DNA of 64,000 nucleotides from Candidatus Multivorans thiocomprendens (GCA_027493375.1 JAPVWO010000250.1:1743-65742), one strand, 5' to 3'; positions 22,896 to 42,919 are shown, numbered from the stretch's first letter. Notes: generated by a model not told the origin, from the letters alone. A program made the numbers and translations.

Positions 22896-22897
22896 GG

Positions 22898-22916
22898 ACG
22901 CCTGCCTGTGGCAGGC
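22898..22916. terminator. GC-rich hairpin between convergent genes (candidate bidirectional terminator)
   Basis: cgcctgcc-tgt-ggcaggcg forms a perfect 8-bp stem with a 3-nt loop. It starts 3 nt after the diheme cytochrome stop. There is no clear U-tract. Confidence 0.35.
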
Positions 22917-22995
22917 GACGTTCTCCCGGCCGCCTGCGGCGGCGGCCGGCGGGGACGCCGGCGCACCCAGTGGGCCCGTTCCCGCTGTCCCGGCC

Positions 22996-23652: not shown

Positions 23653-23668
23653 GATCCGAGCCTATCCG

Positions 23669-23697
23669 GGCGCCGGGCTTTGACCGCCTCGATAGCA
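23669..23697 (+). promoter_or_regulatory. Sigma-70-like promoter candidate for the ActA operon
   Basis: TTGACC (23669-23674), a 17-nt spacer, then TACACT (23692-23697). It lies in the 74-nt divergent region between SCO and actA. Confidence 0.4.
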
Positions 23698-23762
23698 CGC
23701 TGTACACTCCGCGCGATCTCGGAGGGGTGCAGGGCTCATACCCTGCTTCGGGGTACGGAGTT

Positions 23763-27691: not shown

Positions 27692-28380
27692 TGCGGCTTG
27701 CCTGGAACTGGCCGCCCACTGGGTGCGCGGGTCTTCTGACCCGCTGCCGCCGCAGGCGGCCAGGAGAACGCGCCGGCCGTCAGGCCGGCTCCGTCCGGGC
27801 GGCCAGATCCATGCAAGCTCTGGCAGCCGTCCTGCTGCTGCTCGGCTGCCGGGGCATGCCGTCGCCCTTTCCGCCGATCCACCCCAACCCGAACATGGAC
27901 TACCAGGAGCGCTACGACCCGCAGGAGGCGAGCGCCTTCTTCTACGACGGCATGGCGATGCGCCAGCCGGTCGCGGGCACGGTGGCGCGCGGGCAGCTCG
28001 ACGTCGATCACCGCCTTCTGTTCGGGCGCGACGACGAGGGTTACTTCCTCGAAACCTCGCCTCTGGCGGTCACCGACGAGGTGCTGGCCCGGGGCGAGAA
28101 CCGGTACGAGATCTACTGCCAGCCCTGCCACGACGAGCGCGGCACCGGTCAGGGCATCCTGTTCGAGCGCGCCAGCACCCCCACCGCCTCCCTCCACGAT
28201 GAACGCATCGCCGCCTACAACGATGGCCGCCTGTACGACGTGATCACGAACGGTGTCGGGTTGATGGCGGGCTACCGCTATCCGCTGACGGTCGACGACC
28301 GCTGGGCGGTCGTCGCCTACGTCCGTGAGCTGCAGCAGGAACGCCGAACGATGCAGGCGGAGCGGGAAGCACGCCAGTAG
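27691..28380 (+). CDS. actE: ActE-like monoheme cytochrome c lipoprotein
   Basis: Lipobox LLLLGC. A single CQPCH site is present. The C-terminal MAGYRYPLTVDDRWAVVAYVRELQ is typical of ACIII ActE. The start is uncertain: the ATG at 27691 overlaps the actB stop (TGATG), and the ATG at 27811 is the alternative. Confidence 0.7.
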   Translation: MRLAWNWPPTGCAGLLTRCRRRRPGERAGRQAGSVRAARSMQALAAVLLLLGCRGMPSPFPPIHPNPNMDYQERYDPQEASAFFYDGMAMRQPVAGTVARGQLDVDHRLLFGRDDEGYFLETSPLAVTDEVLARGENRYEIYCQPCHDERGTGQGILFERASTPTASLHDERIAAYNDGRLYDVITNGVGLMAGYRYPLTVDDRWAVVAYVRELQQERRTMQAEREARQ

Positions 28381-28394
28381 CGCCCGGGGAACAG

Positions 28395-30326
28395 ATGACC
28401 AGAAACAGGATCCTCTTCGGCATCGGCGTTCTCGCCTTCGTGTCCGTGATCGTCACGGTGCGTCTGGGCGGTTTCCTGGTGGACAACGAGTACCGCCAGC
28501 CGGACCGGCAGGTCGCCGCCCAGGAAGAGCTGGGCGAGGCCGAACTCGTGCCACGCCAGCAGGGCATTGCCGACGAGCAGGCCGCGGACGAAGCCGAAGC
28601 GCGGGCGAGGCCCTACGAGGAGGCCGAGTACCGCACGGTGCCGTTCGTCGGCAGCCGGGTGACCGTGTGGGTGCTGGCGCAGCTCCATCTGCTGTTCGCG
28701 GCGTTCGTCCTCGCCGTGCCGCTGTTCGCCTTCATCATCGAGTTCGTCGGCTACGTCAAGAAGGAGGAGCGGTACAACAAGCTGGCGTACGAGTTCACGA
28801 AGCTCCTCTCCGTCTCGTTCTCGATGACCGCCACCTTCGGGGCGTTCCTGACCTTCGCGTTGATCATCCTCTACCCGAAGTTCACGAACTACCTGATGCA
28901 CATCTTCTCGCCGACGTTCCTGCCCTACGTCCTGCTTTTCTTCCTGGAAGCGCTCTTCCTCTACAGCTACTACTACGGCTGGGGCAAGTTCGGGCCGAAA
29001 ATGCACCTGTTCCTGGGCTTCATGCTGAACATCGTGGGCACCGCGATCATGTTCATCGCGAACGCCTGGCTGACCTTCATGATGTCGCCCGGCAAGCGCG
29101 ACGACATCGATGGCGACGGCGTCCCGGACTTCGTCTCCGCGGTCTCGGAGAGCGGCGCACTCCTCAGCCTCCGAGACGCCTTCTTCAACTTCACCTGGAT
29201 GCCGATCAACATCCACCGGATCATCGCGAACGTCGCCTTCGGCGGCTCGATCGCCGCCGCCTACGCCGCCTTCCGCTACCTGCAGGCGAAGTCCGACGAG
29301 GAGAGGGCCCACTTCGACTGGATGGGCTACGTCGGCAACTTCGTCGCCATCATCGCCTTCCTGCCCCTGCCGTTCGCGGGCTACTACCTGGCCGCCGAGA
29401 TCTACGCCTTCAGCCAGACCCTGGGCATCCAGATGATGGGCGGCACGTTCTCCTGGCTGTTCGTCCTCCAGGCGGCCCTCATCGGCAACCTGTTCCTGGG
29501 CGCCAACTACTACCTCTGGCTGGGGATGGGCCGCATGGAGGGCGGCGTCCACTTCCAGAAGTTCATCAAGTGGCTGCTGATCGCGATCGCCCTCTGCTTC
29601 GCCGTCTGGGCAACGCCGCGCTACGCCATCTCTTCGGTCTCCGAGATCGCCGCGATGGGGGGCAGCAGCCACCCGCAGCTTTCCTACCTGGGGCAGATGT
29701 CGGCCAAGAACACGGCGGTCAACATCCTGATCCTCTCGACCTACATGAGCTTCCTGCTCTACCGGCGGACCGGCAGGCAATCGATCCATCCGCACAGGCA
29801 GCTCCTCACCCGCGCACAGGCGATCGTCTTCTCCTCCGCGGCGGCGCTGGTCATCTTCTACGGCGTCTACGGCTACTTCGTCGACTCGGCGACGCGCATC
29901 CGGTTCGCGATTCCGCAGGTCTACTCCGTGCTCGCGGCCCTGGTGGTGATCACGGTGATCGACCTGCCCCTGTACCGCAACGCCGCGCAGTCGGGCGAAA
30001 CCAAATGGGGCAGAATCCCGGCCGTCTCGCAGTACGCCCTCATCTTCATTGCCCTCAGCTTCACCTGGCTGATGGGGCTGATGGGCTACGTCCGCTCCGG
30101 CCTGCGCCAGGAATGGCATGTGTACGGCGTGATCCTCGACACCTCCCCGGACGCCTACACGCCCAGCCTGGGCTTCGCGACGCAGGTCGTCTCCGTCACG
30201 GTTCTCATCTTCTTCGGCCTGATCGGCGTCGTCTTCTGGCTCAGCAGCCTGAGCGGCAAGAAGGACTACGCGCCGGGCGCTGCCGCTGAGGACGGCGGCC
30301 GGCTCGAAGGGGGCCAGACGGCATGA
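28395..30326 (+). CDS. Cytochrome bd-like membrane protein (CydA superfamily, no Q-loop)
   Basis: By eye it aligns to E. coli CydA at four segments. AQLHLLFAAFVLAVP aligns with the H19 region. FFLEALFLYSYYYGWGKFG...IANAWLTFMMSPG aligns with FFLESTFVGLFFFGWDRLG...VANGWMQNP. INIHRIIANVAFGG aligns with the H186 region. GYVRSGLRQEWHVYG aligns with EYGRQPW. It has 643 aa and many TM segments, with only a short loop where the quinol-binding Q-loop would be. Confidence 0.75.
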   Translation: MTRNRILFGIGVLAFVSVIVTVRLGGFLVDNEYRQPDRQVAAQEELGEAELVPRQQGIADEQAADEAEARARPYEEAEYRTVPFVGSRVTVWVLAQLHLLFAAFVLAVPLFAFIIEFVGYVKKEERYNKLAYEFTKLLSVSFSMTATFGAFLTFALIILYPKFTNYLMHIFSPTFLPYVLLFFLEALFLYSYYYGWGKFGPKMHLFLGFMLNIVGTAIMFIANAWLTFMMSPGKRDDIDGDGVPDFVSAVSESGALLSLRDAFFNFTWMPINIHRIIANVAFGGSIAAAYAAFRYLQAKSDEERAHFDWMGYVGNFVAIIAFLPLPFAGYYLAAEIYAFSQTLGIQMMGGTFSWLFVLQAALIGNLFLGANYYLWLGMGRMEGGVHFQKFIKWLLIAIALCFAVWATPRYAISSVSEIAAMGGSSHPQLSYLGQMSAKNTAVNILILSTYMSFLLYRRTGRQSIHPHRQLLTRAQAIVFSSAAALVIFYGVYGYFVDSATRIRFAIPQVYSVLAALVVITVIDLPLYRNAAQSGETKWGRIPAVSQYALIFIALSFTWLMGLMGYVRSGLRQEWHVYGVILDTSPDAYTPSLGFATQVVSVTVLIFFGLIGVVFWLSSLSGKKDYAPGAAAEDGGRLEGGQTA

Positions 30327-30808
30327 AGCTCTCCGTTCCCATGCCGCTGCGGCTGGTCCTTCTCGTGCTGGGCACCACGGCCTTCTACATGTACCTGGGC
30401 CAGATCGTGCCGCAGAAGGAATCCCACCCACCGCCGCCGGTCCTGATCAACGCCGAGATGACGACGGAGGACCTGGTGGCGGTCGGCGCGGAGCTGGCGA
30501 GCGGCAAGGGCCAGTGCCTCGTCGGGTGTCACACGGTCGGCCAGAGCGGCCCCTTGCGCTATCCGGACCTGGACGGCATCGGCGGCCGCGCCGCCACCCA
30601 GGTGGACGGCCTGTCCGACCTGGAGTATCTCGCCCAGTCGCTCTACGAGCCGGCCGTGTTCATCGTCCCAGGGTTTGCCGACGGAATGCAGGCCATCAAC
30701 CAGCCGCCGATCAACCTCTCCGACGACGAGATCAAGGCGGTGATCGCCTGGCTGCAGAGCCTGGGCGGTACGCCGAACGTGACCCTGGACACCGATCTCG
30801 GCTATTGA
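30323..30808 (+). CDS. Membrane-anchored monoheme class I cytochrome c
   Basis: ATG overlaps the bd-like gene stop (ATGA). N-terminal TM segment. A single CLVGCH site and a distal Met (ADGMQAIN) are present. The C-terminus reads IAWLQSLGG. Confidence 0.7.
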   Translation: MKLSVPMPLRLVLLVLGTTAFYMYLGQIVPQKESHPPPPVLINAEMTTEDLVAVGAELASGKGQCLVGCHTVGQSGPLRYPDLDGIGGRAATQVDGLSDLEYLAQSLYEPAVFIVPGFADGMQAINQPPINLSDDEIKAVIAWLQSLGGTPNVTLDTDLGY

Positions 30809-30816
30809 CGTGAACT

Positions 30817-30832
30817 TTCAGAAATTTCTGAA
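30817..30832. promoter_or_regulatory. Perfect 16-nt AT-rich palindrome TTCAGAAATTTCTGAA (candidate operator)
   Basis: Seen directly in the sequence. It lies in the 119-nt intergenic gap inside the cytochrome operon. The half-site TTCTGAAC occurs again at 30864-30871. Confidence 0.3.
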
Positions 30833-30927
30833 CAGATGAGGAACAACCTCCTGCCCGTCGCTGTTCTGAACGGTGACTGCCCCCAAAGCGGTCGACCCTC
30901 AGCCCCTCGAACCTGCCGGAACTGATC

Positions 30928-31746
30928 ATGTTGGGACTCAACCTTCCCGTTGTCATCGTCCTGGCCGCGGTCGGCGGCGTACTCGCCTGGCGCCGGGCCA
31001 ACACTCTCACCTGGCTGCTCTACACCTGGGTCGCCCTGTGGGCCTTCTTCAAGTACGGCTTCGCCGTGCCGATCCCGCGGTCCGTGGCGACGATCTACCT
31101 CGGAATCACCGGGCTCGCGCTGGTCTGCTTCGCCTCCTCGAGCCGGGAACGGTTGTCGGAGACGGTCCAGCCGATCGCGCGGCTCATTCTCGAACCCCGC
31201 TACCGCCTGGCCCTCGCCGGGCTTCTCGTCGCCCTGCCGGCACTCGCCGCCTACAACGTCTACGCCGATCTGAACGTGCCGCTGGAGGCGCCCGGTTTCG
31301 GCCGGGAGGTCCATCCGCCGCCGCCCACGGAGATGACCGTCCACGACGAGACGGTCGACATGGCGACGGCCGAGAACCCGTACCTGCACTACAACCACGA
31401 CGATCCGGAGCTCTACGGAGAGCACCTGGAGAACGGGCGGCGGGTCTACTACGAGAACTGCTTCTGGTGCCACGGCGACGGCATGGGCGGAGACGGCATG
31501 TTCGCCCACGGCCTGAATCCCGTGCCCAGCAACTTCAACGATGTCGGCACGTTGCCGATCCTCCAGTCCTCCTTCGTCCACTGGCGGATTGCCAAGGGTG
31601 CTCCGGGCCTTCCCGGCGCGGGGACCCCCTGGGACAGCATGATGCCGGCCTGGGAGAAGTTCCTCACCACCGAGGAGATGTGGGACGTCAACCTCTTCAT
31701 CTACGACTTCAACGGCTACGAGCCGCGCGCCCTGGGGCAGCACTGA
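30928..31746 (+). CDS. Polytopic membrane protein with a C-terminal monoheme cytochrome c domain
   Basis: About four N-terminal TM segments are followed by GRRVYYENCFWCHGDGMGGDG (CxxCH) and ...MMPAWEKFLTTEEMWDVNLFIY. Confidence 0.7.
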   Translation: MLGLNLPVVIVLAAVGGVLAWRRANTLTWLLYTWVALWAFFKYGFAVPIPRSVATIYLGITGLALVCFASSSRERLSETVQPIARLILEPRYRLALAGLLVALPALAAYNVYADLNVPLEAPGFGREVHPPPPTEMTVHDETVDMATAENPYLHYNHDDPELYGEHLENGRRVYYENCFWCHGDGMGGDGMFAHGLNPVPSNFNDVGTLPILQSSFVHWRIAKGAPGLPGAGTPWDSMMPAWEKFLTTEEMWDVNLFIYDFNGYEPRALGQH

Positions 31747-33548
31747 TGACCGTGCACGCCAGACGACGCGCTCGGGCCATGGCCACGTTGGCCGCTGCCG
31801 TCCTGCTCGTGGCCCTGCCGGCCGGCGGCCAGGTCGACCTCGGCACCGAGGAGCAGCGCGCGGCCGGAAAGATCGTCTACGACAAGTACTGCGGCCAGTG
31901 CCACGGCGACACCGGCGACGGCAACGGCTACGCCACGCCGCGCGTCAAGCCGAAGCCGCGCGACTTCACGACGGGCACCTACAAGTTCCGCACCACGCCG
32001 AACGGCATGCTGCCCACGGACGACGACCTGCGCCGCGTGATCGAGATCGGCGCCCCCTACACCTCGATGCCGGGCTGGCCGAACCTGACGAGCGCCGAGA
32101 TCCAGAACGTCATCTACTACATCAAGTCCTTCTCGCCCGACTTCGAGAACCCCGACCGCTACGGCGAGCCGATCGAGATTCCCCGGCCGCTCGAATCGAC
32201 CGAGGAGTCGATCGCCCGCGGCCGCGTGGTCTACGAGGAGCAGGGCTGCGCCGCCTGCCACGGCGAGGTCGGGCGGGGCGACGGCCCATCGGCGCCGACC
32301 CTGGTCAATGACAAGGGCGACCCGATCAAGGTCGCCGACCTCACCCAGCGCTGGACCTACCGCGGCGGTGCGACGAAGGAAGACATCTACCGCACCTTCT
32401 CCACCGGCCTGAACGGCACGCCCATGCCGTCCTACGCCGACTCGCTCGAGATCGAGGATCGCCAGCACCTGGTGAACTACGTCTACTCGCTGGGCGACGG
32501 AGACGATCCGAACTACGGCACGCTGATCACGGCGGTCTACTCGGAAGAGCCGATCGACCTGGAGGACGGAGAAACGCTCGACGCGCTGTTCGAGACCGCG
32601 CCGATGACCCGCTTCCCCCTCGTCGGCCAGATCAGCGAACCGGGACGCAACTTCTTCCCCTCCGTCACCTCGATCGAGGCCCAGGCGGTCTACAACCGCG
32701 ACGAGATCGCGTTCCGGGTCCGCTGGCACGACCTCCGCGCCGACACCTCGGGCCGCAACAGCCCGAGCCTGGAAGTGCCGATGTGGGACGAGGACAACGG
32801 CATCGGCGCAGAGGCGGCCGACGACGGCGGCGACGATTTCTTCGGGGATGCCGGAGGGGACGATTTCTTTGGCGAGTTCGGCGGCGAGGAAGCGCCCGCG
32901 GAGGACGACTTCTTCGGCGATAGCGGCGGCGACGACTTCTTCGGTGACGGCGGCGACGACTTCTTCGGCGCCGCCGACGCAGGGCCCCCCGGCGCCGAGT
33001 TCTCCGACGCCGTGGCGCTGCAGTTCCCGGCCTCGCTGGCGCCCGAGGAGACTCCCGAACTCAAGCCGTACTTCCTCTACGGCGACTCCCAGAACCCGGT
33101 CGACCTCTGGTTCGTCAACCTGACGTACGGTGTCGCCGACACATTCCGGGGCCGCGGCAGTGAGTCGATCGAGCCCACCGAGGCCGACATCGTCGAAGCC
33201 GTGACTTCCTACGACCAGGGCGAATGGACCGTGACGTACAAGCGGCGGCGCTCGTCGCGCGCCGGCGTCAGCTTCGCCGAGCAGCAGTACACGCCGGTCG
33301 CCTTCAGCGTCTGGGACGGCTTCAACCGCGAACGCGGAAACAAGCGGGCGCTGTCGTCCTGGTTCTACGTCTACACCGAACCGAGCGTGCAGCCGGCGAC
33401 GACGTTCCCCATCGTCCGGGCAGCCGTCATCGTGCTCGTGCTCGAACTGCTGGTCGTCTTCCTGGTTCGCCGCCGGGCCCGCCGGCAGGCGGCCGGCGAA
33501 GAGGCCGCGGGCGGGACCCTCGCCGCAACCGAGGCGCCCGCCGTCTGA
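31746..33548 (+). CDS. Diheme cytochrome c fused to an ethylbenzene-dehydrogenase-gamma-like (EB_dh) domain, with C-terminal TM anchor
   Basis: Start trimmed to the ATG at 31746 (1-nt overlap with the upstream stop). There is a signal peptide and two heme sites, CGQCH and CAACH. The later AQAVYNRDEIAFRVRWHD...AVALQFP...PVAFSVWDGFNRERGNKRALSSW resembles the EB_dh / DMSO-reductase gamma-subunit fold. The terminal TM segment is AAVIVLVLELLVVFLV. Confidence 0.7.
   Translation: MTVHARRRARAMATLAAAVLLVALPAGGQVDLGTEEQRAAGKIVYDKYCGQCHGDTGDGNGYATPRVKPKPRDFTTGTYKFRTTPNGMLPTDDDLRRVIEIGAPYTSMPGWPNLTSAEIQNVIYYIKSFSPDFENPDRYGEPIEIPRPLESTEESIARGRVVYEEQGCAACHGEVGRGDGPSAPTLVNDKGDPIKVADLTQRWTYRGGATKEDIYRTFSTGLNGTPMPSYADSLEIEDRQHLVNYVYSLGDGDDPNYGTLITAVYSEEPIDLEDGETLDALFETAPMTRFPLVGQISEPGRNFFPSVTSIEAQAVYNRDEIAFRVRWHDLRADTSGRNSPSLEVPMWDEDNGIGAEAADDGGDDFFGDAGGDDFFGEFGGEEAPAEDDFFGDSGGDDFFGDGGDDFFGAADAGPPGAEFSDAVALQFPASLAPEETPELKPYFLYGDSQNPVDLWFVNLTYGVADTFRGRGSESIEPTEADIVEAVTSYDQGEWTVTYKRRRSSRAGVSFAEQQYTPVAFSVWDGFNRERGNKRALSSWFYVYTEPSVQPATTFPIVRAAVIVLVLELLVVFLVRRRARRQAAGEEAAGGTLAATEAPAV
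32820..32969 (+). repeat. In-frame acidic-aromatic tandem repeat (five DDFFG units) inside the EB_dh-like domain
   Basis: The translation is DDGGDDFFGDAGGDDFFGEFGGEEAPAEDDFFGDSGGDDFFGDGGDDFFG. The DNA units ggcggcgacgacttcttcgg recur nearly identically. Confidence 0.9.
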
Positions 33549-33624
33549 CCCGGAGCATCCCGGAACAACACCCGACCCAGTACCGCACAGAACCGACACT
33601 TCCGTCAACCCGAGAGACATCACC

Positions 33625-35784
33625 ATGTACAAGACGATCTACGTCCCCGTCGACAACTCGGACTACTCGAACCAGGCGATCGCCTCCGCGGTCGAGCTGG
33701 GCCGCGAGTTCGACTCCACGATGGTCGGCTGCCACGTCTACGCGGCCAGCATGCACGACTACCGCTTCAAGCAGATGGAGTACACCCTGCCGGACGAGTA
33801 CCTCGAGGAGACGGAGCTCGACCGCCAGCGGAAGATCCACGACTCGCTCATCACGATGGGCCTGGAGCTCATCTCCGAGAGCTACCTCGAGCCGATGAAG
33901 GCGGTCTGCGACGACGCCGGCCTCGAGTTCGAGCCGAAGATGATGGACGGCAAGCACCACGTCGAGATCGTCCGCGACATCCGCGAATCGGGCTACGACC
34001 TGACGGTGCTCGGCGTGATGGGGATCGGCCGCGTCCGCGACACCCAGATCGGCTCCGTCTGCGAACGCGTGGCCCGCACCGCCGACAGGGACGTCCTGGT
34101 CATCAAGCGGCTGCCCGCGGGGGCGACCGCGACGAACGGAAACGGCAACGGGCACCATACCGAGGCCGACGGCCGCGACACGATCCTGGTCGGCGTCGAC
34201 GGCTCGCCCCAGTCCTTCGGAGCGCTGATGACGGCGATCGACCTGGCGAAGACCCTCGGCAAGAAGGTCGAGGCGATCTCGGTCTACGACCCCTACCTGC
34301 ATTACTCCGTGTTCAAGGGCGTGGTCAACGTGCTGACCGAGCGCGCGGCGAAGATCTTCCGCTTCGAGGAGCAGAACCAGCTCCACGAGGAGATCATCGA
34401 CACCGGTCTGGCGCAGATCTACCAGTCCCACCTGGATGTCGCCGAGACGATGGCGACCGAGGTCGGCGTGGAGTTGACGAAGACGCTCCTCGACGGCAAG
34501 GCGTTCCAGAAGGTCCTCGACCATGCCAGGAAGATCGATCCCTGGATGCTGGTCATCGGCCGGGTCGGCGTCCACAGTGACGAGAGCGAGACCGGCCTCG
34601 GCAGCAACGCCGAGAACCTGCTCCGCGCCTGCCCCTGCGACCTGCTCCTGACCACTCGCCTGGAGCACCCGGAACTCGACGTCAAGGCCGAGGAGAGCAT
34701 CCGCTGGACCCCCGAAGCCGAGGAGCGTTTCAAGCGGGTGCCCGAGCAGGTGCGCGGCATCGCCCGCACCGCCCTCTACAGGCTGGCCGTCGAGCAGGGA
34801 CACAGCGTGATCTCGAGCAACGTGCTCGACGAGGCGATGGACCGCTACATGCCGAAGTACACCGCCCGCGAGACGGAGGCCCTGGCCGAGAAGCTCGCCC
34901 TGCAGCTCGCGCGCAGCCGGCCGACCTTCATCTGCAGGAAGTGCGGCGTCACCTCGGCCGAACCCGATCCGGTGCGCTGCGGCGTCTGCGGCAGCGACTC
35001 CTTCGAGCAGATCACCGAAGAGATGCTGGAACGGATCGCCGAAATGGAAGGCGGTCTCGAGGTCGAGACCACCTACGACGGCCGCAAGCTGAAGTGGACC
35101 GCCGACGCCCGCCTGGCCCTCAAGACGATCGAGGACGCCTACCGCCGCCGCCGCGCCAAGGCCCGGATCGAGAAGAAGGCGCGGATGAGCAAGCTGCCGA
35201 CCGTCACCTTCGAGTTCGCCCGCGTGATGATCGAGGACGAGACCGGCGAGCCGGTGACGATCGAGGCCCGTGAGCAGGCGACCGAGGCCAACGGCAACGG
35301 CGCCGCCGAGACGTCGGCCGACGAACGCAAGCTGATCGCCCGCGACGACGACCGCGTCCCGCTGCTCTCGAACCACGAGTGGACCGCCGAAGCCGTCGAG
35401 CGCATCCTCCGGGTTCCCGCCGGCTTCATGCGCGACCGCACCCAGGAGCGCGTCGAACTGGTGGCCCGCGAAAAGCACGTCTCCCGGATCGGCATCAAGA
35501 CGGTCGAGGAGGGCATCGAGCTCGGCCGCGAGCTGATGGAGCAGATGATCGCGGCCTACGAGCTAGACAAGAAGGACGAGTCGCCCGCCGGGGACGTCGC
35601 CGAGGCCGAAGCAAAGGCCGCGACCGCCGCCGGCAGGTGCCCCTTCTCCGCTCTCGCCGAAGCCGGCGCCAGCGACGCCCAGGTCGAGGCGGCCAAGGAC
35701 GCGAAGGCCGGGAGCTACCTGAACGAGGTCGGCCTGATGTCGGCCCTGGACGAGAAGCGCAAGGCCGATGAGTCCCGCAACTGA
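33625..35784 (+). CDS. Double universal-stress-protein (USP) domains fused to a zinc ribbon and three PCP_red-like (BchB C-terminal-like) domains
   Basis: USP1 is IYVPVDNSDYS...LTVLGVMG...VCERVARTADRDVLVIK. USP2 is ILVGVDGSPQS...LVIGRVG...GSNAENLLRACPCDLLL. The zinc ribbon is CRKCG...CGVCG. The PCP_red-like units are RWTPEAEERFKRVPEQVRGIARTALYRLAVEQGHSVISSNVLDEA, KWTADARLALKTIEDAY... and EWTAEAVERILRVPAGFMRDRTQERVELVAREK. Confidence 0.8.
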   Translation: MYKTIYVPVDNSDYSNQAIASAVELGREFDSTMVGCHVYAASMHDYRFKQMEYTLPDEYLEETELDRQRKIHDSLITMGLELISESYLEPMKAVCDDAGLEFEPKMMDGKHHVEIVRDIRESGYDLTVLGVMGIGRVRDTQIGSVCERVARTADRDVLVIKRLPAGATATNGNGNGHHTEADGRDTILVGVDGSPQSFGALMTAIDLAKTLGKKVEAISVYDPYLHYSVFKGVVNVLTERAAKIFRFEEQNQLHEEIIDTGLAQIYQSHLDVAETMATEVGVELTKTLLDGKAFQKVLDHARKIDPWMLVIGRVGVHSDESETGLGSNAENLLRACPCDLLLTTRLEHPELDVKAEESIRWTPEAEERFKRVPEQVRGIARTALYRLAVEQGHSVISSNVLDEAMDRYMPKYTARETEALAEKLALQLARSRPTFICRKCGVTSAEPDPVRCGVCGSDSFEQITEEMLERIAEMEGGLEVETTYDGRKLKWTADARLALKTIEDAYRRRRAKARIEKKARMSKLPTVTFEFARVMIEDETGEPVTIEAREQATEANGNGAAETSADERKLIARDDDRVPLLSNHEWTAEAVERILRVPAGFMRDRTQERVELVAREKHVSRIGIKTVEEGIELGRELMEQMIAAYELDKKDESPAGDVAEAEAKAATAAGRCPFSALAEAGASDAQVEAAKDAKAGSYLNEVGLMSALDEKRKADESRN

Positions 35785-35922
35785 GTCACGTGGTTTCGCG
35801 CTTCCGACACGACTCACGCCTGTGAACGAGCAGAGCACGTCCGCGAAGAGGAGATCGGCTCCACACTGCGGGCGGACCAGGAGCCGGCCTTTCTCTATCT
35901 CGCTCTCCTGGCGTGGGCCGTA

Positions 35923-36702
35923 ATGGCCACGGCGCAGCCATCCGACAAAGAAGACGATGACAAGGAGACGTCCGACATCTCTGTCGTTTCTCTGGTGTAC
36001 GCAGAGGCGGTCGCCGCCGGCCTTGAAGACGAACAGGTCGTTCGAGAGGTCTTTGCCGCCCTGGTCGCCAAAGCCGACTACCAGGTGCTCAAACGCCTTT
36101 ACGCTTCCGTGGTCCGCAAGAACCGCGAGCGGCAGTCAATCGTCCGCCGCTCCCTGCGCGAGACCGGCTACAGGCAGGAAGTCTGGGCCGAGTGGCCGAG
36201 CCAGAAGGTCAACGCCCTGTACGCGATGGCCATCGCCTCAGGCGCTGAACCCGACCCCGTGCTTCGACAGCGTCTCTTCCGGCTCCTGGACCGTGAGGCC
36301 GATGACGCTGGGCCCGACATCCTGTGCGATGCTTCCTGTGGGCCGGAAGACCCTGAGCATCCCTTCAACATCTACGACACGGACATCTTCCGGGAATGGC
36401 TGGGATGGTACGAGCACGTCTTCCACGGCGGTCCGGCTCCCGCTGTTCTCTTTGAAATCGACGCCGCGCAGATCGAGAAGCTGATCGACGGATCATGCAC
36501 TATCGCCCAAGCGGTGTCCGCGATTGGCACCGTTGCTGACGTCATTGAAATCGTCAGGAACGATCCCCCTGCCGGGCTGTTCTGGAAAAAGAAGATCGTG
36601 AAGTGGCTGGCCAAGGCCGGCGTAAAGATCACTGTCTCGCAGGTCACGGGGGTAGGCGGCATGCTTAACCTTGCCGCTGTTCTGTGCGAACTCCGAGAAT
36701 AG
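35923..36702 (+). CDS. Hypothetical protein (no recognisable domain), lower-GC gene
   Basis: 259-aa ORF with an acidic N-terminus and no signal peptide. The C-terminal part is amphipathic/hydrophobic. Codon usage is visibly less GC3-biased than in neighbouring genes. Confidence 0.5.
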   Translation: MATAQPSDKEDDDKETSDISVVSLVYAEAVAAGLEDEQVVREVFAALVAKADYQVLKRLYASVVRKNRERQSIVRRSLRETGYRQEVWAEWPSQKVNALYAMAIASGAEPDPVLRQRLFRLLDREADDAGPDILCDASCGPEDPEHPFNIYDTDIFREWLGWYEHVFHGGPAPAVLFEIDAAQIEKLIDGSCTIAQAVSAIGTVADVIEIVRNDPPAGLFWKKKIVKWLAKAGVKITVSQVTGVGGMLNLAAVLCELRE

Positions 36703-36704
36703 CT

Positions 36705-36812
36705 ATGCCTCTTCGGGATCTTGCAGTCACGGCAAAGACGGTCGCTGGCGTGGTCCTCTTCTTCCTGGTGCTCGCTTGGGCCGCCTTCAAGTTCTGGATG
36801 GTATTCACTTAG
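36705..36812 (+). CDS. Small hydrophobic peptide (35 aa, one TM); not in the supplied ORF track
   Basis: I translated this myself: MPLRDLAVTAKTVAGVVLFFLVLAWAAFKFWMVFT. The ATG begins 2 nt after the preceding stop codon. Confidence 0.3.
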   Translation: MPLRDLAVTAKTVAGVVLFFLVLAWAAFKFWMVFT

Positions 36813-37082
36813 CCGGTTCTCCTCTGGATCTTCACTGAAGCACGGAGGGCCATCCTGCGAGTAACCCTCTTCTCGGGGTGATTCTCTGGAGTCGCCTCCA
36901 GATTCCTGTTGTTCCCATCCGGAGCCCGATCGGGTCGGACCTCCGTAGCAGCCCAACGGTCGCACTGCCATCCGCGACCAACCGCGTGGCCGGTGGCGCA
37001 CGAGCGCTACTCCTTGATCCTCAAGACCGCTCCTCGGGAATCTGACGGCCCGCGTCCACGTGCTTCTCAGTCCTCCATACCC

Positions 37083-38456
37083 ATGCGAACGACTCCCCCT
37101 ACCGGCATGATCTTCCATGGCTGGAAGATCATCTTCGTCTCCTTCCTGGCGTTGTTCGTCTCCGTCGGCTTCGGCTTCTACTCGTTCAGCGCCTTCTTCG
37201 TTGCCCTGACCTCCGAGTTCGGGGGCGGCCGGGTCGGCGTCGGCATCGGCGTCGCCATCTTCGGCGTGACGAACGGCTTGGTCGCGCCGTTCCTGGGTCA
37301 TGCCCTGGACCAGGGCCACGCGAAGCGGATCATGACGGCGGGCACCTGGCTGCTGGCGCTGGGCCTGCTCCTGACCGCGACGGTCCAGAATCTGATCCAG
37401 TTCTACCTCGTCCTCGGCACCTTCCTGGCCCTGGGAGCGGCGCTGATCGGTGGCGTGACCGCCTCCACCCTGGTCGCCAACTGGTACGTCCGCCAGCGCG
37501 CCATGGCTCTCGGCATCGCCACGATGGGCATCTCGCTCTCGGGCGTCGTCATGGCGCCCGTGGCGACACGGCTGATCGACCTGATCGGCTGGCGCGGTAC
37601 GTTCGTGCTCTACGGCGCGCTGACGCTGCTCTTCGTCCTTCCGGCCGTCCGGCGCTGGGTGATCGACCGCCCGGAGGACATCGGCCTTCACCCCGACGGG
37701 GCAGCGACCTCCCTGGCCGGCGAGTGGACCGCGGCGCCCGCGGCCGGGGAGGGACCGGTGGGCGTGGAACCGGTAACGCCCCTGCCCACGGCCGACGGCG
37801 CTCCGCCCAGGCGCCCACGGCTGGAGTGGACGCAGCCGCTGGCGAACCGCAACTTCTGGGTCATCGTCCTCGTCGTGTCGATGTGCTTTTGCGCCAACTC
37901 CGCCATCCTCGCGCACATCATCGCCCACGCGACGGACCTGGGCTTTCCGCCCGTCGACGCTGCCTTCTGCCTGTCCACGATCGCTGCCATGGGAGTACTG
38001 GGCAAGGTCGTGTTCGGCTGGATCAGCGACCGGCTCAGCAGTCGCGGCGCCGTGTGGCTGGCGGTCAGCCTGATGGGCGCCGGCGCCGGCGGTCTGCTGG
38101 GGGCCGAGAGCTATCCGGCGGTTCTCGGCGCCGTCGCCGTCTTCGGACTCGGCATGGGCGGCATCATGCCCTTGTGGGGAACGCTGATAGGGGCCTGCTT
38201 CGGCCGCCGCTCCTTTGGCCGGGTGATGGGCCTGATGAGTCCCATGCTGCTGCCGATCCAGGTACTCGGCGTCCCCTTCGCGGGCTACGTCTACGATCGT
38301 TTCCACAGCTACGACCTGGCCTTTACCACGTTCGTCGGCTTGTACGGCTTCTCCATAGTGACCCTCCTGCTTCTCCGAGTCCCCGCACGGGAGCCGAGCG
38401 GCTCCGCGGCTTCCCCCGCGGGGCCGACGACCGCGACGGTCACGCGGACGGAGTAA
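37083..38456 (+). CDS. MFS transporter (oxalate/formate antiporter-like)
   Basis: Start trimmed to the ATG at 37083. The N-terminus GWKIIFVSFLALFVSVGFGFYSFSAFFVAL is typical of OFA-type MFS proteins. There are 12 hydrophobic segments with a long central loop. Confidence 0.8.
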   Translation: MRTTPPTGMIFHGWKIIFVSFLALFVSVGFGFYSFSAFFVALTSEFGGGRVGVGIGVAIFGVTNGLVAPFLGHALDQGHAKRIMTAGTWLLALGLLLTATVQNLIQFYLVLGTFLALGAALIGGVTASTLVANWYVRQRAMALGIATMGISLSGVVMAPVATRLIDLIGWRGTFVLYGALTLLFVLPAVRRWVIDRPEDIGLHPDGAATSLAGEWTAAPAAGEGPVGVEPVTPLPTADGAPPRRPRLEWTQPLANRNFWVIVLVVSMCFCANSAILAHIIAHATDLGFPPVDAAFCLSTIAAMGVLGKVVFGWISDRLSSRGAVWLAVSLMGAGAGGLLGAESYPAVLGAVAVFGLGMGGIMPLWGTLIGACFGRRSFGRVMGLMSPMLLPIQVLGVPFAGYVYDRFHSYDLAFTTFVGLYGFSIVTLLLLRVPAREPSGSAASPAGPTTATVTRTE

Positions 38457-38460
38457 CCGG

Positions 38461-39372
38461 GTGACCGCCTACCGTTTCTGCCGTTCGGACGACGTGCCCC
38501 TCATCGTCGACGCGTACGAACGCTGCAACGTCGGCGCCGGCGCCCGGCCCTGGCGCCTGACGGTGGACCACATGAAGCGGCTGGGCCGGGAGATGAACCT
38601 CTGGACCAGCAGTTGCATGGTCGCCTTCGAGGGTTCCGACCCGATCGGCGTCCTCATCGCCGCCAAGCGGGAGCCGATCGCCAGCCTGGTGCTCCACGTC
38701 GCCGTCCACCCGGATCACCGCCGCCGGGGTCACGGCCGCCACATGATGACCTCGCTGAGCCAGAAGATGGCGATCCTCGAACCGACGCTGATGCTCGTCG
38801 AACTACCGGAAGGCGACGCCCTCGGCCGCCGCTTCTTCGAAGCCTGCGGATTCACAAGGCGGGACGTCCTGACCGATTACACCTGCGCGGGCGAGGCGCC
38901 GGCCGGCGGCGTCGACCCGGTCGGTGGCGTCGACCTGGTCGCCGATGTCGCCGCCGCCGAGCTTGTCTCGCAAGAGGACTTCGAGGCCGTCCCGGAGCTC
39001 GACCGCTGCTGGCAGCGCGCTCCTCTGAGCATCCGGAACCTCCGTGACCGGCCGCAAGGTCTTGCGATCGCCACCGATCGAGGCTTCGAGGCCTGGCTGC
39101 TCCACCGGGGCGACGGCGACGCGGAGACGCCCCTGCCCTTCCTGGCGGCCCCGCCGACGCGGTCACCGCTGGAGGTCCTCGCCCTCGGCGGCAAGATGCC
39201 CGTTCCCGCGCTCGTGCGCCCGCTGCTCGCCGTGGCGTCGGACCGCGCCGGGCGCTCGCTCCACCTGCCCCGGGTCCATCCGTCGGAGGTCCCCGCCGGC
39301 CGCCTCGAGGAGTACGGCTTCAGGCCCGGCTCCAGGACGATTCGCTACGAGAGCGACGCGGCTCCGGCTTGA
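38461..39372 (+). CDS. GNAT family N-acetyltransferase (two-lobed)
   Basis: LVLHVAVHPDHRRRGHGRHMMTSL matches the acetyl-CoA binding motif A (Q/R-x-x-G-x-G/A). GTG start. Confidence 0.6.
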   Translation: MTAYRFCRSDDVPLIVDAYERCNVGAGARPWRLTVDHMKRLGREMNLWTSSCMVAFEGSDPIGVLIAAKREPIASLVLHVAVHPDHRRRGHGRHMMTSLSQKMAILEPTLMLVELPEGDALGRRFFEACGFTRRDVLTDYTCAGEAPAGGVDPVGGVDLVADVAAAELVSQEDFEAVPELDRCWQRAPLSIRNLRDRPQGLAIATDRGFEAWLLHRGDGDAETPLPFLAAPPTRSPLEVLALGGKMPVPALVRPLLAVASDRAGRSLHLPRVHPSEVPAGRLEEYGFRPGSRTIRYESDAAPA

Positions 39373-39396
39373 GGACTTGGTACTCTCGCACCCGCG

Positions 39397-40275
39397 ATGA
39401 AGAGCTACTTCGACCTGATCGATGACGGCGGTTCCGACATCGCCGGCCAGGTCGGCCGGCAGCGGGAACGCATCGCCGAGGCCCTGACCGGCGTCGAACA
39501 CATCGTCGCCATCGGCTCCGGCAAGGGAGGCGTCGGCAAGAGCACCCTGACCATGCAACTGGCCCTGGCCATGGAGCGCCGCGGCCGCCGCTGCGCCGTG
39601 CTCGACGCCGATCTGAACGGCCCTTGCCAGGCGCGCCTCGCCGGCCTCGAGAACGCGGCCCTGCTTCCGGGCGGCCGCGGCATGGCGCTGCCGCGCACCG
39701 CGACCGGACTCGGCGTCGTATCGATGGGTTCCGCGGTGCCGGAATCGGAGGACCTGGACTTCGCCAGCGTTGCCCGCGGCGACTCCCATGTCTGGCGCGC
39801 CACCCGCGAGTTCAACCTGTTCCAACAACTGCTCGGTCTGGTCGACTGGGGACGTCTCGACGTTCTCCTGGTCGACCTGCCGCCCGGCGCCGAGCGCACG
39901 CTCCAGTACGCCGAGGTCCTGGGACCGGGGGCCCGTTTCGTCCTCGTCTCGATTCCGACCGCCCTGGCGCGAGGCGTCGTGGCGCGCTCGGCCGCCGCTC
40001 TGCGGCGAACCCGGAACGTGACGCTCGGCGTGATCGAGAACATGAGCGGCTACTACTGCGAAGGCTGCGACGATGTCCGGCCTCTGTTCGAGGGCTCGGA
40101 CGACACGGCCCCCGAGCTTGGACTCCCCGTACTCGCTTCGATACCGTTCGATCCGCGGCTGGCCGCGGCCTCCGACGCCGGCGACCCGGAGTTGCCGCGG
40201 GGGCCTGCCGTCCGCGCGATCGAGACCGCCGCCGACTCCATCCTGAGCGGCCTCGCCGAGCGGCGGGCCGGCTGA
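39397..40275 (+). CDS. Mrp/NBP35 (ApbC-like) P-loop ATPase, Fe-S cluster carrier family
   Basis: Deviant Walker A IGSGKGGVGKST, VLDADLNGP, LLVDLPPG and the CxxC pair NMSGYYCEGCDD are typical of the family. Confidence 0.85.
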   Translation: MKSYFDLIDDGGSDIAGQVGRQRERIAEALTGVEHIVAIGSGKGGVGKSTLTMQLALAMERRGRRCAVLDADLNGPCQARLAGLENAALLPGGRGMALPRTATGLGVVSMGSAVPESEDLDFASVARGDSHVWRATREFNLFQQLLGLVDWGRLDVLLVDLPPGAERTLQYAEVLGPGARFVLVSIPTALARGVVARSAAALRRTRNVTLGVIENMSGYYCEGCDDVRPLFEGSDDTAPELGLPVLASIPFDPRLAAASDAGDPELPRGPAVRAIETAADSILSGLAERRAG

Positions 40276-40287
40276 TCCGGAGACCCG

Positions 40288-40767
40288 ATGAAGTTCCTCT
40301 GCGTACCCTGCGACGAGCAGATGAAGCTCAAGCACGCGATCGGCCCCGAGGGCGGTTCGGTCGCCCTGGTCTACGCCTGTCCCGCCTGCTCGGCCGAGAT
40401 GGCGATGATGACGAACCCGCACGAAACCCAGGTCGTCGGCTCGCTCGGAGTGAAGATCGGCGCCGCGGAAGATCCCGAGGCGGCCGCGGCCGCCTCGAAA
40501 TGCCCGTTCACCGGCATGCTGGCCGACATGGGCGTTCCGGTGACCGGAACGCGCGCCGCGGAGAACGCCAACCCCGTCGCGAGCGGCAATGGCGGCCCCG
40601 GAGGCATTCCCTGGACGGCCGAGGCCCGCGAGCGGCTCGCCAACATCCCGGACATCGTCCGCGCCGCGGCTGTCGCGGGGATCGAGAAGTTCGCCGAGGA
40701 CCACGGCTACGAAGAAGTCAACGCGGCCGTCCTGGAACGCGCCCGCTCGTTCTTCGGGATCGCCTGA
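40288..40767 (+). CDS. Zinc-ribbon protein with a C-terminal PCP_red-like domain
   Basis: The N-terminus has CVPCD...CPACS. The C-terminus IPWTAEARERLANIPDIVRAAAVAGIEKFAEDHGYEEVNAAVLERA fits the BchB C-terminal pattern W..eAe..l..iP.fvR. Confidence 0.75.
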   Translation: MKFLCVPCDEQMKLKHAIGPEGGSVALVYACPACSAEMAMMTNPHETQVVGSLGVKIGAAEDPEAAAAASKCPFTGMLADMGVPVTGTRAAENANPVASGNGGPGGIPWTAEARERLANIPDIVRAAAVAGIEKFAEDHGYEEVNAAVLERARSFFGIA

Positions 40768-40783
40768 CCGCCTGGAGCCGGCG

Positions 40784-42154
40784 ATGACGGTGTCACCCCT
40801 GGAGCGGCAGGCGAGCGTGAACCCGACCGCCTTCGCGCGGCCGTACGTCATCTCCTGGAACCTGACCTACCGCTGCAACCTGGCCTGCGAGCACTGCTAC
40901 CTCGACGCCGGCGGCAAGCCTCTGGTCCAGACCGCGAACTTCGCCGACCGCTCGGAGCTCTCGACCGACCAGTGCCGCAAGGTGATCGACGACATCTGCG
41001 AGTTCGCCCCCGAAGCCCTGGTCATCCTCACCGGCGGCGAGCCGCTGCTGCGCCGAGACATCCTGGAGATCGTGCGCTACGCGGCAGAGCGCGACTTGTG
41101 GGTCGTCGTCGGCAGCAACGGCGTGCGCATCACCGAGAACCTGGCCCGGATTCTGGCCGGCGAGGGTGTCCGCGGTCTCGCCCTGTCGCTCGACGCCCTC
41201 GACGCCGAGGTCCACGACGGCTTCCGGCGGGTTCGCGGCGCCTGGCGGAACACGGTCGACGGCGCCGGGCACCTCGCCACGGCAGGGTTGCCCTTCATCA
41301 TCCAGACCACGGCCGGCGCCCACAACCGGGGTCAGCTCGAGGAGATCGCCGAGTTCGCCTACAGCGAACTCAAGGCACGGGTCTGGAACCTGTACTTCCT
41401 GGTTCCGACCGGCCGCGGCCAGTTCGTCTCGGACCTGTCGCCGTCCGACTACGACGAGGTGCTGGCCGCCCTCACGTCCATCCAGCGGAACTACCGCGGG
41501 CGCATGGTCGTCAACGCGAAGTGCGCGCCCCACTACGTCCGCCAACTACTCGCCGGAGACCAGGACTCGCCCTTCCTCAAGGCGTACGACGGCGGCGCCG
41601 GCGGCTGCCCGGCCGGAACCCACTACATGGGGATCCGACCCAACGGCGACGTCACGCCCTGCCCCTACCTGCCGGTGTTCGGCGGCAACCTGAAACGGTC
41701 GACGCTCTCGGATCTCTGGAACGACTCCGACCTCTTCCAGTCGATCCGGCGCCGCAACGATCTCGGCGGCCGCTGCGGCTCCTGCGAGTTGTCGACGGTC
41801 TGCGGCGGCTGCCGGGCCCGGGCCTTCGGGATGACGGGCGACCTGATGGCGGAGGATCCGCTCTGCACCCACGAGCCCGGCACCTTCACTGCCGACCGGC
41901 TCCAGGCGTTCGGCGACCGCACCGGGCTGGCCTCTCTCGCCCGCTACGGCGAAGACAGCTCGACCAGCATCGCCTGGGAACCCGAAGCCGAAGCCCGCAT
42001 GAAGCGGGTGCCGGCCTTCGTCCGCGGCATGGTCGTGCGCTCGGTCGAGTCCCACTGCCGCAAGAACGGGATTTCGACCGTGACCGTCGACGAACTCGAG
42101 TCGATCCGCGCCCGGATGCCGACGCCAAAGGTCTTCGGCAGCCGCCCTTCCTGA
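40784..42154 (+). CDS. Radical SAM/SPASM enzyme, NirJ/AhbC/AhbD-like, with a C-terminal PCP_red-like domain
   Basis: Start trimmed to the ATG at 40784. VISWNLTYRCNLACEHCY is the CxxxCxxC radical SAM cluster motif. LTGGEPLLRRD is present. The SPASM cysteines are CPAGTHYMGIRPNGDVTPCPY and GGRCGSCELSTVCGGCRARA. The tail reads IAWEPEAEARMKRVPAFVRGMVVRSVESHCRKNGISTVTVDELE. Confidence 0.85.
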   Translation: MTVSPLERQASVNPTAFARPYVISWNLTYRCNLACEHCYLDAGGKPLVQTANFADRSELSTDQCRKVIDDICEFAPEALVILTGGEPLLRRDILEIVRYAAERDLWVVVGSNGVRITENLARILAGEGVRGLALSLDALDAEVHDGFRRVRGAWRNTVDGAGHLATAGLPFIIQTTAGAHNRGQLEEIAEFAYSELKARVWNLYFLVPTGRGQFVSDLSPSDYDEVLAALTSIQRNYRGRMVVNAKCAPHYVRQLLAGDQDSPFLKAYDGGAGGCPAGTHYMGIRPNGDVTPCPYLPVFGGNLKRSTLSDLWNDSDLFQSIRRRNDLGGRCGSCELSTVCGGCRARAFGMTGDLMAEDPLCTHEPGTFTADRLQAFGDRTGLASLARYGEDSSTSIAWEPEAEARMKRVPAFVRGMVVRSVESHCRKNGISTVTVDELESIRARMPTPKVFGSRPS

Positions 42155-42182
42155 ACGGCGTAAGCAGCCCGGGTTAGAGGTC

Positions 42183-42839: not shown

Positions 42840-42919
42840 TGCCGCACCCGGGCTCTTCACGAAGGGCCACATCCGCATTTGACCCGCGGAAGAGCCTGTG
42901 ATGAGCGTTCCAAGTCAAC

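Follow-up and report, generated by a model that had tools for sequence, protein, structure and literature searches.

Here we describe a group of neighboring genes in a 64,000-nucleotide (64-kb) stretch of DNA from Candidatus Multivorans thiocomprendens (GCA_027493375.1, JAPVWO010000250.1:1743-65742; hereafter the window), whose products share PCP_red (PF08369), the small C-terminal domain of protochlorophyllide reductase subunit B (BchB). This module comprises a tandem universal stress protein (USP) with PCP_red units (USP2PCP, 719 aa, 33625..35784; all coordinates refer to the plus strand unless stated), an Mrp/NBP35-type ATPase (39397..40275), a zinc-ribbon PCP_red protein (ZnPCP159, 159 aa, 40288..40767) and a radical S-adenosylmethionine (SAM)/SPASM enzyme ending in PCP_red (456 aa, 40784..42154). 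Judging from sequence and gene context, the module most likely constitutes a conserved cytoplasmic tetrapyrrole-processing set dedicated to respiratory heme proteins, and regarding its reaction we tentatively favor, at somewhat under an even chance, an oxygen-independent conversion of coproheme to heme b, in which the PCP_red proteins would act as tetrapyrrole lids or carriers. A first-pass annotation of this DNA had proposed a tetrapyrrole (heme) modification or delivery module for the adjacent bd-like oxidase; our results support this in part, through the AhbD/NirJ2 placement of the enzyme, the presence of PCP_red and the co-occurrence with respiratory genes, while an exclusive link to the bd-like oxidase did not hold, and by homology plain oxygen-independent heme b synthesis appears at least as likely as the d-type or otherwise modified heme then suggested. 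The host is an acidobacterium of the class Thermoanaerobaculia, its radical SAM protein being 97-99% identical to those of metagenome-assembled genomes (MAGs) labelled Candidatus Multivorans, Thermoanaerobaculia or Holophagales, and the G+C content is ~68% along the whole window.

The enzyme combines a radical SAM domain, a SPASM domain (41606..41788) and a C-terminal PCP_red domain (residues 398-440, 41975..42103; strict motif present), with Pfam scores of 78, 40.9 and 47.5 bits, respectively. The CxxxCxxC motif of the radical SAM cluster (C31, C35 and C38; 40874..40897) is invariant in the alignment, as are eight further cysteines (C247, C275, C293, C331, C334, C340, C343 and C361, that is, those of the SPASM domain plus C247 and C361), which from their number should suffice for two auxiliary clusters; this combination of CxxxCxxC with a C-terminal, SPASM-type auxiliary set is the one held by AhbD (NirJ2). 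Furthermore, the enzyme core scored best against the NCBIfam models of AhbD heme b synthase (TIGR04545, 295.4 bits), NirJ2 (TIGR04055, 276 bits) and TIGR04053 (263 bits), followed by NirJ (158 bits), AhbC (143 bits), the mycofactocin maturase MftC (140 bits) and PqqE (116 bits), and the resemblance to the NirJ/AhbC/AhbD group noticed at the first pass was thereby borne out, with AhbD/NirJ2 as the closest members. NirJ, the heme d1 enzyme, is a tetrapyrrole propionate-processing radical SAM/SPASM enzyme of the same superfamily (PMC7242693); however, the score on its model (TIGR04051) was 157.6 bits against a cutoff of 515, neither a nir operon nor siroheme decarboxylase genes were found in the window, and a NirJ/heme d1 function was rejected on these grounds.

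More than 7800 homologues of the enzyme were recovered, with ~70% identity across Acidobacteriota. Among relatives drawn from a search of 1.84 billion cluster representatives, a sharp divide was observed: all full-length representatives at or above ~269 bits (38-47% identity) carry one to four copies of PCP_red, and none of those below ~245 bits has the domain. The nearest relatives devoid of PCP_red are all AhbD/NirJ2-like (290-498 bits on those models), and in a neighbor-joining tree of the catalytic core one split parts 29 PCP_red-bearing sequences (plus two without the domain) from 74 AhbD/NirJ2-like sequences, with three or fewer sequences misplaced in 48 of 50 bootstraps. Because of the NCBIfam scores, the AhbD/NirJ2 scores of these relatives and the tree split, the enzyme is best placed, by homology, in a distinct branch of the tetrapyrrole-processing AhbD/NirJ2 radiation and not among peptide or sulfatase maturases. 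Distant members of this branch (P0369, P0372, P0381, P0382 and P0409; 593-713 aa) present, behind the radical SAM core, PCP_red in three or four tandem copies, and examples of multi-copy members occur in Nitrospinota, Binatia and Nitrosomonadales. In one locus (L042:4219-6234) the radical SAM/SPASM/PCP_red open reading frame (ORF, 671 aa) goes on, in the same frame, to take in a SAM methyltransferase domain like that of UbiE/COQ5, which could reflect either a genuine fusion or a frameshift in the assembly. Several AhbD-like proteins without PCP_red (P0425, P0432, P0440, P0441, P0449 and P0456) bear long C-terminal extensions that, on visual inspection, look like siroheme decarboxylase domains of the AsnC type (AhbA/B, NirD).

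We consider it improbable that the enzyme is instead a protein- or peptide-modifying SPASM maturase, which would use PCP_red to recognize its target, for instance ZnPCP159 (via the invariant Cys-Pro), USP2PCP or a subunit of an oxidase, or would form an anaerobic/aerobic formylglycine system with a downstream protein resembling formylglycine-generating enzyme (FGE). Most SPASM enzymes do act on peptides, PqqE was the top sequence match of the enzyme among solved structures (E=1.6e-15), an invariant cysteine lies in the disordered linker of ZnPCP159, and a gene encoding an FGE-sulfatase-domain protein (218 aa, 42183-42839, Pfam 92 bits) starts 28 bp past the radical SAM gene, with a sulfatase gene (56461-58404) ~14 kb downstream. 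Against this, the top maturase model reached only 143 bits, compared with 295 for AhbD, and no sulfatase maturase appeared among the 25 best NCBIfam families of the enzyme (lowest 56 bits); clustering with peptide-modifying or sulfatase-maturating SPASM enzymes, the outcome that the first-pass annotation had named as speaking against its proposal, was thus not found. Neither a RiPP recognition element (RRE; RiPP, ribosomally synthesized and post-translationally modified peptide) or PqqD-type domain by Pfam, nor a conserved small precursor-like ORF across the compared loci, was detected, and a RiPP maturase was rejected for lack of both. The Cys-Pro of ZnPCP159 is missing from the Nitrospinota orthologue and does not fit the formylglycine motif, C-x-P-x-R. 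As for the FGE-like gene, it occurs only in the Multivorans-like clade, being absent from L036-L038, L041, L043 and the other diverged loci, and is probably unrelated to the module; a pairing of FGE with an anaerobic sulfatase-maturating enzyme was rejected, given this restriction and an enzyme unlike that maturase family.

Gene coordinates and domain content stood as earlier described, with every named domain confirmed by Pfam, and hidden Markov model (HMM) searches supported PCP_red above the Pfam gathering score of 32.5 bits in all three proteins (73.1 bits in USP2PCP, 44.9 in ZnPCP159 and 47.5 in the enzyme). When all six frames of the window were searched with the strict motif W-x2-E-A-x3-(L/F/M)-x2-(I/V)-P-x2-(V/M)-R, three matches were obtained, each inside the three PCP_red genes, and a looser first half of the motif gave five matches, exactly at the five sites first reported and none elsewhere. 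Four of these five copies are clear; the middle one of USP2PCP is degenerate and is backed by the AlphaFold2 (AF2) model, in which it shares the fold pattern. The C-terminus of the enzyme matches the C-termini of solved BchB/ChlB chains by sequence (2xdq_B, E=2.7e-5; 3aek_B, E=1.1e-4). Similarly, Foldseek found in the ZnPCP159 model the three-helix fold of the BchB C-terminal domain, matching the nuclear magnetic resonance (NMR) structure of the BchB PCP_red domain (2KRU) with a root-mean-square deviation (rmsd) of 0.8 Å over 51 columns (template modeling score on the target 0.77, probability 1.00), as well as the stand-alone Nostoc protein asr4154 (2L09) and ChlB in 2YNM (2YNM_D, rmsd 1.1 Å).

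By HMM, sequence and predicted fold, therefore, this is the same small domain as that of BchB/ChlB (2KRU, 2YNM, 3AEK) and asr4154; unlike BchB/ChlB, however, the module proteins have no nitrogenase-like core, and PCP_red is joined to USP domains, a zinc ribbon or a radical SAM enzyme. From subunit B of DPOR (dark-operative protochlorophyllide oxidoreductase), only BchB model positions ~445 to the end (the last 50-70 residues) were matched, with 31-48 bits against cutoffs of ~490-912; bchN and bchL are absent from the window, and the first-pass statement that there are no chlorophyll-biosynthesis genes was upheld in a Pfam scan of ~55 ORFs of the window. With neither a BchB core nor bch genes present, the idea that the module is left over from chlorophyll synthesis was rejected. 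Since the same domain caps two unrelated tetrapyrrole enzymes, DPOR subunit B and the AhbD-like branch, and also occurs as free proteins alongside, PCP_red may well be a lid, carrier or docking unit, this being the pattern expected of a substrate lid or carrier; no statement of its role was found in the DPOR literature searched. An analogous arrangement is offered by NifB, a radical SAM enzyme whose small C-terminal NifX domain, like the stand-alone NifX encoded nearby, traffics cofactor precursors (PMC13474568); folds, cofactors and pathways are unrelated in the two cases, and a carrier function of PCP_red would be drawn from it by analogy only.

USP2PCP displays two Pfam stretches each for Usp (PF00582, 126.7 bits) and PCP_red (73.1 bits). 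Its tandem USP domains (residues 1-161 and 186-343; 33625..34653; Pfam and AF2 secondary structure) are followed by PCP_red copy 1 (residues 355-406, 34687..34842; Pfam stretch 361-404, 47.3 bits with our own HMM, strict motif at 34705-34755), a CxxC...CxxC zinc ribbon (residues 437-455, 34933..34989; invariant C437, C440, C452 and C455, weak HypA match), the degenerate copy 2 (residues 488-540, 35086..35244; loose motif, 8.8 bits and i-E 0.004 with an HMM made from the other PCP_red copies) and copy 3 (residues 585-628, 35377..35508; second Pfam stretch, 16 bits and i-E 2e-5 with our own HMM, AF2 predicted local distance difference test [pLDDT] ~90). In the AF2 model of the whole protein (pLDDT 71.5), copy 2 (pLDDT ~80) presents the same strand-helix-helix-strand-helix pattern as both clear copies. 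Both USP domains hold a G-x2-G-x9/10-G-S nucleotide-binding-type motif, read by eye, whose residues (G130, G133, G143 and S144; G312, G315, G326 and S327) are invariant in the alignment. Homologues of USP2PCP (4342 at E<=1e-10) are named only 'universal stress protein'; their conserved core is USP-USP-PCP_red, the zinc ribbon and the extra PCP_red units being lineage-specific extensions. A Cys-Pro-Phe motif near the C-terminal end was discarded as a general feature, as it occurs only in Thermoanaerobaculia. The regulatory or chaperone role initially suggested for the USP fusion is plausible. In one distant locus (L143:1452-2932) the USP tandem protein has no PCP_red, a separate CBS-domain protein lies between the USP and radical SAM genes, and a PCP_red-like fragment follows the enzyme.

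ZnPCP159, called 'PCP reductase family protein' at NCBI, is composed of an N-terminal zinc ribbon with four invariant cysteines (C5, C8, C31 and C34), a linker predicted to be disordered and a C-terminal PCP_red domain (residues 109-153, 40612..40746) that holds the strict motif; pLDDT in the AF2 model is 80-90 for the N-terminal domain, below 50 for residues 58-104, and ~90 for the C-terminal domain. Within the linker, Cys72-Pro73-Phe74 (40501..40509) resembles a heme-regulatory (CP) motif, which takes the form of Cys-Pro plus a hydrophobic residue within a flexible segment. Among 50 database homologues C72 and P73 never vary and F74 reaches at least 90% conservation; in 105 distinct ZnPCP sequences from the collected loci, conservation of the triplet is at least 95%. 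The likeness to heme-regulatory motifs lies in the sequence and the predicted disorder. The triplet is near-invariant in Acidobacteriota; the Nitrospinota orthologue lacks it, as do most USP2PCP orthologues.

Immediately upstream of the module lies a respiratory cluster (21771..33548, identified by Pfam), encoding in order a cytochrome c (374 aa, cytc374), an ActA-like multiheme cytochrome c, an ActB-like Fe-S/molybdopterin-fold protein, a bd-like CydA (28395-30326), a cytochrome c (161 aa, cytc161) and a cytochrome c with an EB_dh domain (cytc891, 30873-33548). To follow this association, the window proteins were compared with 133 loci from genome and metagenome scans, in which loci whose enzyme is at most 75% identical to that of the window, mostly from soil metagenomes, were termed diverged, and eight deep-lineage loci with 37-41% identical enzymes were read individually. 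Close relatives keep USP2PCP and cytc891 upstream in 33-34 of 34-35 loci, with no cytochrome c oxidase (COX) operon downstream of the enzyme. Among diverged acidobacterial loci, Mrp was present in 54/55 and ZnPCP in 71/72, USP2PCP in 13 of the 26 having at least 5.5 kb upstream, and the bd-like gene in 8 of the 18 having ~10 kb upstream; on the other side, of the 33 having at least 3 kb downstream, 26 continue past the enzyme with an aa3-type operon in convergent orientation (COX1-COX3-COX4-x-COX2), and every diverged locus with both flanks complete (9/9) holds at least one oxidase-cluster gene. Vicinamibacterales (L036-L038) and a second lineage of Thermoanaerobaculia (L041) retain the full order bd-like, cytc161, cytc891, USP2PCP, GNAT, Mrp, ZnPCP, radical SAM, although cytc891 is only 41-56% identical there.

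In the deep-lineage loci, the arrangement varies around the pair formed by the USP-PCP_red protein and the enzyme. The Nitrospinota locus L134 reads cytochrome c, DUF420, Mrp, PCP_red (149 aa), USP-PCP_red and radical SAM (613 aa), and the Nitrosomonadales locus L135 reads lactonase-type NosZ, cytochrome c, USP-PCP_red, radical SAM and HemY. In L136, a COX operon with UbiA is divergent from the radical SAM gene, followed by USP-PCP_red, Mrp and PCP_red, and then by a bd-like gene; in L137, a bd-like, cytochrome c/EB_dh, cytochrome c and cytochrome c series is divergent from USP-PCP_red, radical SAM and a cytc374 orthologue. L138 (Binatia) holds cytochrome c/EB_dh, one further gene, cytochrome c, USP-PCP_red and radical SAM; L140 holds cupredoxin, SCO1, bd-like, cytochrome c, one gene, USP-PCP_red, one gene and radical SAM; L141 holds USP-PCP_red and radical SAM with a cytochrome b nearby; and L143 holds cytochrome c, USP, CBS, radical SAM and the PCP_red fragment. 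Thus the USP tandem gene is adjacent in 8/8 deep-lineage loci and carries PCP_red in 7/8, and because it is present in all eight, the partner that stays constant from phylum to phylum is the USP tandem protein. Genes for respiratory cytochromes lie near in every case, with a bd-like and/or cytochrome c-EB_dh orthologue in 4/8, and also in L044, where the enzyme (54% identical) is flanked by a HugZ/DUF2470-type protein and a cytc891 orthologue. As a separate observation on this stretch of L135 (906-9284, a Nitrosomonadales MAG), its NosZ belongs to the clade III, lactonase type of nitrous-oxide reductases (742 bits on NF052460, above cutoff). Small membrane proteins are encoded just upstream of Mrp in L134 (DUF420, 6377-7057) and L043 (weak SirB-like match, 7659-8012, following a CoxB-like subunit II), and may be oxidase assembly factors.

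Orthologues of the bd-like protein, cytc161, cytc891 and cytc374 of the window therefore adjoin the pair in Vicinamibacterales, the second Thermoanaerobaculia lineage and Binatia, and down to 39-41% enzyme identity; the co-occurrence of the module with the respiratory cluster, which had been put forward for checking in other genomes, is real and old. What did not survive is service to the bd-like/cytochrome complex alone, the aa3-type COX operon being the commoner neighbor. These neighborhoods bear on a further explanation, possible yet on the unlikely side, in which the module would perform a special heme maturation for the bd-like (OR-N type)/cytochrome c-EB_dh complex: radical chemistry on a heme side chain would yield a non-canonical heme (d-like, trimmed or oxidised) for this complex only, carried by the PCP_red proteins to the assembly site. 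Consistent with this, orthologues of the four cluster proteins adjoin the pair at 39-41% enzyme identity (L137, L138, L140) and cytc891 flanks the enzyme of L044; the PCP_red-bearing enzymes form their own branch, under the AhbD cutoff, with an elaborate partner set; their relative NirJ shows lineage chemistry beyond vinyl formation (PMC7242693); and the OR-N family keeps its active-site heme ligand, with cofactors uncharacterised (bioRxiv 10.1101/2021.01.16.426971). Conversely, the bd-like gene was within 10 kb in only 8/18 diverged acidobacterial loci against 26/33 for aa3 COX, L134, L135 and L141 hold the pair with no bd-like gene in their flanks, canonical bd oxidases require no such enzyme, and there is no chemical evidence for a non-canonical heme. 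We regard as unlikely the broader proposal that the pair, joined by Mrp and the zinc-ribbon PCP_red protein in loci that have them, would constitute an unrecognised cofactor-maturation system for OR-N-type bd-like/cytochrome c-EB_dh complexes, making a non-canonical heme by side-chain radical chemistry, with PCP_red as a general tetrapyrrole carrier family of the chlorophyll and heme pathways.

The Mrp protein (292 aa), located immediately upstream of the last two genes of the module as originally noted, is a P-loop Fe-S carrier ATPase of the Mrp/NBP35 type, with a ParA/NUBPL Pfam score of 178 bits, a deviant Walker A (GKGGVGKS) and a CEGC motif. Its scores lie under the MrpORP and ApbC equivalog cutoffs of NCBIfam, and it is therefore regarded as a member of the Mrp/NBP35/ApbC family and not as a named orthologue. 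Mrp/NBP35 is related to BchL/NifH, both being P-loop ATPases that carry a cluster at their dimer interface, and this kinship, together with the retained CEGC motif, the nucleotide-binding-type motifs kept in both USP domains and the occurrence of PCP_red in all partner proteins, would suit a model in which PCP_red serves protein-protein docking only: the Mrp-like ATPase with its bridging cluster and the PCP_red/USP proteins would assemble into a complex that, in an ATP-dependent manner, delivers electrons to the enzyme or regulates it, loosely like BchL feeding BchNB, with no tetrapyrrole bound by PCP_red. We give this model very little credence, as Mrp, present in Nitrospinota L134 and in L136, is missing from most deep-lineage loci that keep the pair, there is no evidence of the BchB PCP_red contacting BchL, and the simplest role for an Mrp/NBP35 protein is Fe-S cluster delivery.

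Returning to heme b synthesis, AhbD catalyzes the last step of the coproporphyrin pathway in some organisms and ChdC in others (PMC7242693); Acidobacteria are reported to use this pathway, mostly with ChdC, AhbD being the oxygen-independent coproheme decarboxylase (PMC10991733), and for this reason coproheme would be a native intermediate in the host. Starting from the observed domain content, family placement and conserved neighborhoods, we infer substrate and reaction, the binding of heme by PCP_red or by the CP motif, and what the USP and Mrp proteins do, as follows. The enzyme would carry out an AhbD-type, SAM-dependent and oxygen-independent oxidative decarboxylation of two coproheme propionates to yield heme b, bypassing the peroxide-dependent ChdC at low oxygen, and its C-terminal PCP_red would serve for docking or as a lid over the tetrapyrrole. 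Via the shared PCP_red, ZnPCP159 and USP2PCP would dock to the enzyme, or deliver substrate and remove product; the Cys-Pro-Phe motif of the ZnPCP159 linker may bind heme transiently; the tandem USP domains could tie the step to nucleotide or energy status; and the Mrp/NBP35 ATPase would load the three [4Fe-4S] clusters of the enzyme. Siting beside bd-like and aa3 oxidase operons would then secure heme for these oxidases at low oxygen. This reading fits the gene directly after the enzyme in L135, which encodes a protoporphyrinogen oxidase of the HemY type (246 bits on TIGR00562, whose cutoff is 98); the HugZ/DUF2470-type protein next to the enzyme in L044 is a second heme-pathway neighbor among the distant loci.

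A comparable siting is that of hemN, the gene of an oxygen-independent radical SAM heme-biosynthesis enzyme, which adjoins genes of the low-oxygen terminal oxidase cbb3 in several proteobacteria; HemN, however, is not a SPASM enzyme, acts before iron insertion, and has no PCP_red or USP partners. From AhbD (NirJ2) the enzyme differs in its scores below the 500-bit cutoffs, its separate branch and its C-terminal PCP_red (one to four copies across the branch), as well as in its partners (USP-PCP_red, ZnPCP and Mrp) and respiratory context, as opposed to ahbABC or heme operons. The latter context is exemplified by L048, a deltaproteobacterial AhbD-like control encoded in a cobA/hemD, radical SAM, hemE operon, which scored 443 bits; as this control in a heme operon also falls under the 500-bit cutoff, the shortfall of the enzyme, whose relatives in other lineages score 279-338 bits on the AhbD model, does not exclude a heme synthase function.

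Several observations weigh against plain heme b synthesis. The enzyme lies below all curated equivalog cutoffs (AhbD 295 and NirJ2 276 against 500 bits) and on the far side of a single split from canonical AhbD/NirJ2 in the tree, and from this separate branch it follows that a changed substrate or reaction is quite possible. Heme-biosynthesis genes are absent from the window, the CP motif is absent from the Nitrospinota ZnPCP orthologue, and the Cys-Pro-Phe of USP2PCP, confined to Thermoanaerobaculia, is absent from most of its orthologues. Moreover, Acidobacteria reportedly already have ChdC, and may not need the enzyme for bulk heme; a simple biosynthetic enzyme is not obviously in need of two or three PCP_red partner proteins, nor of a linkage to bd-like/cytochrome c-EB_dh clusters that persists at 39-41% identity.

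The remaining genes of the region are described next. Between USP2PCP and Mrp lies a gene for a GNAT acetyltransferase (303 aa, 38461..39372; Pfam Acetyltransf_7/1) with an uncharacterised C-terminal half, found in 34/35 close loci and in 19 of the 26 diverged loci with enough flank, and absent from the deep-lineage loci; it is a conserved neighbor only within Acidobacteriota. In the segment between USP2PCP and a major facilitator superfamily (MFS) transporter gene, orf259 (35923-36702) has no Pfam or NCBIfam match and a third-position G+C of 0.75 against ~0.9; because the length of this segment varies among close relatives, orf259 looks like a variable insertion. Both orf259 and the MFS transporter, which is absent in diverged loci, were rejected as components of the module. 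At the upstream end of the respiratory cluster, a NosD-like beta-helix protein (19754-21784) and the gene for cytc374 (21771-22895) precede the ActA/ActB-like and bd-like genes, and a SCO1/SenC copper chaperone is encoded at 22996-23652 (minus strand; Pfam); these genes (19754-23652) hint at a copper site in this respiratory cluster. The ~700 bp between the ActB-like and bd-like genes (27692-28394) hold no ORF with a Pfam match, ORF 27516-28202 having given none, and may conceal a membrane subunit. A promoter and terminator scan of 33000-44700 yielded no promoter-like sites, and terminator-like sites near the shuffle expectation.

A full-text literature search found no description of the module, and its proteins bear generic names in public annotation ('radical SAM protein', 'universal stress protein', 'PCP reductase family protein'). 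It constitutes, on the evidence above, a distinct and widespread branch within the AhbD/NirJ2-type enzymes, equipped with a domain borrowed from a chlorophyll enzyme and with dedicated partner proteins, spanning Acidobacteriota, Nitrospinota, Binatia and Nitrosomonadales, and it points to a function of PCP_red outside chlorophyll synthesis. The supply of heme to oxidases at low oxygen is poorly understood, and the module, with its three or four proteins, represents a concrete candidate for that step; it also bears on the question of the cofactors of OR-N-type bd-like oxidases, which are uncharacterised. To encode a coproheme decarboxylase that needs neither oxygen nor peroxide together with respiratory complexes for low oxygen would be biologically sensible and, if the plainer heme b reading is true, the module would reveal how users of the coproporphyrin pathway form heme independently of both oxidants.

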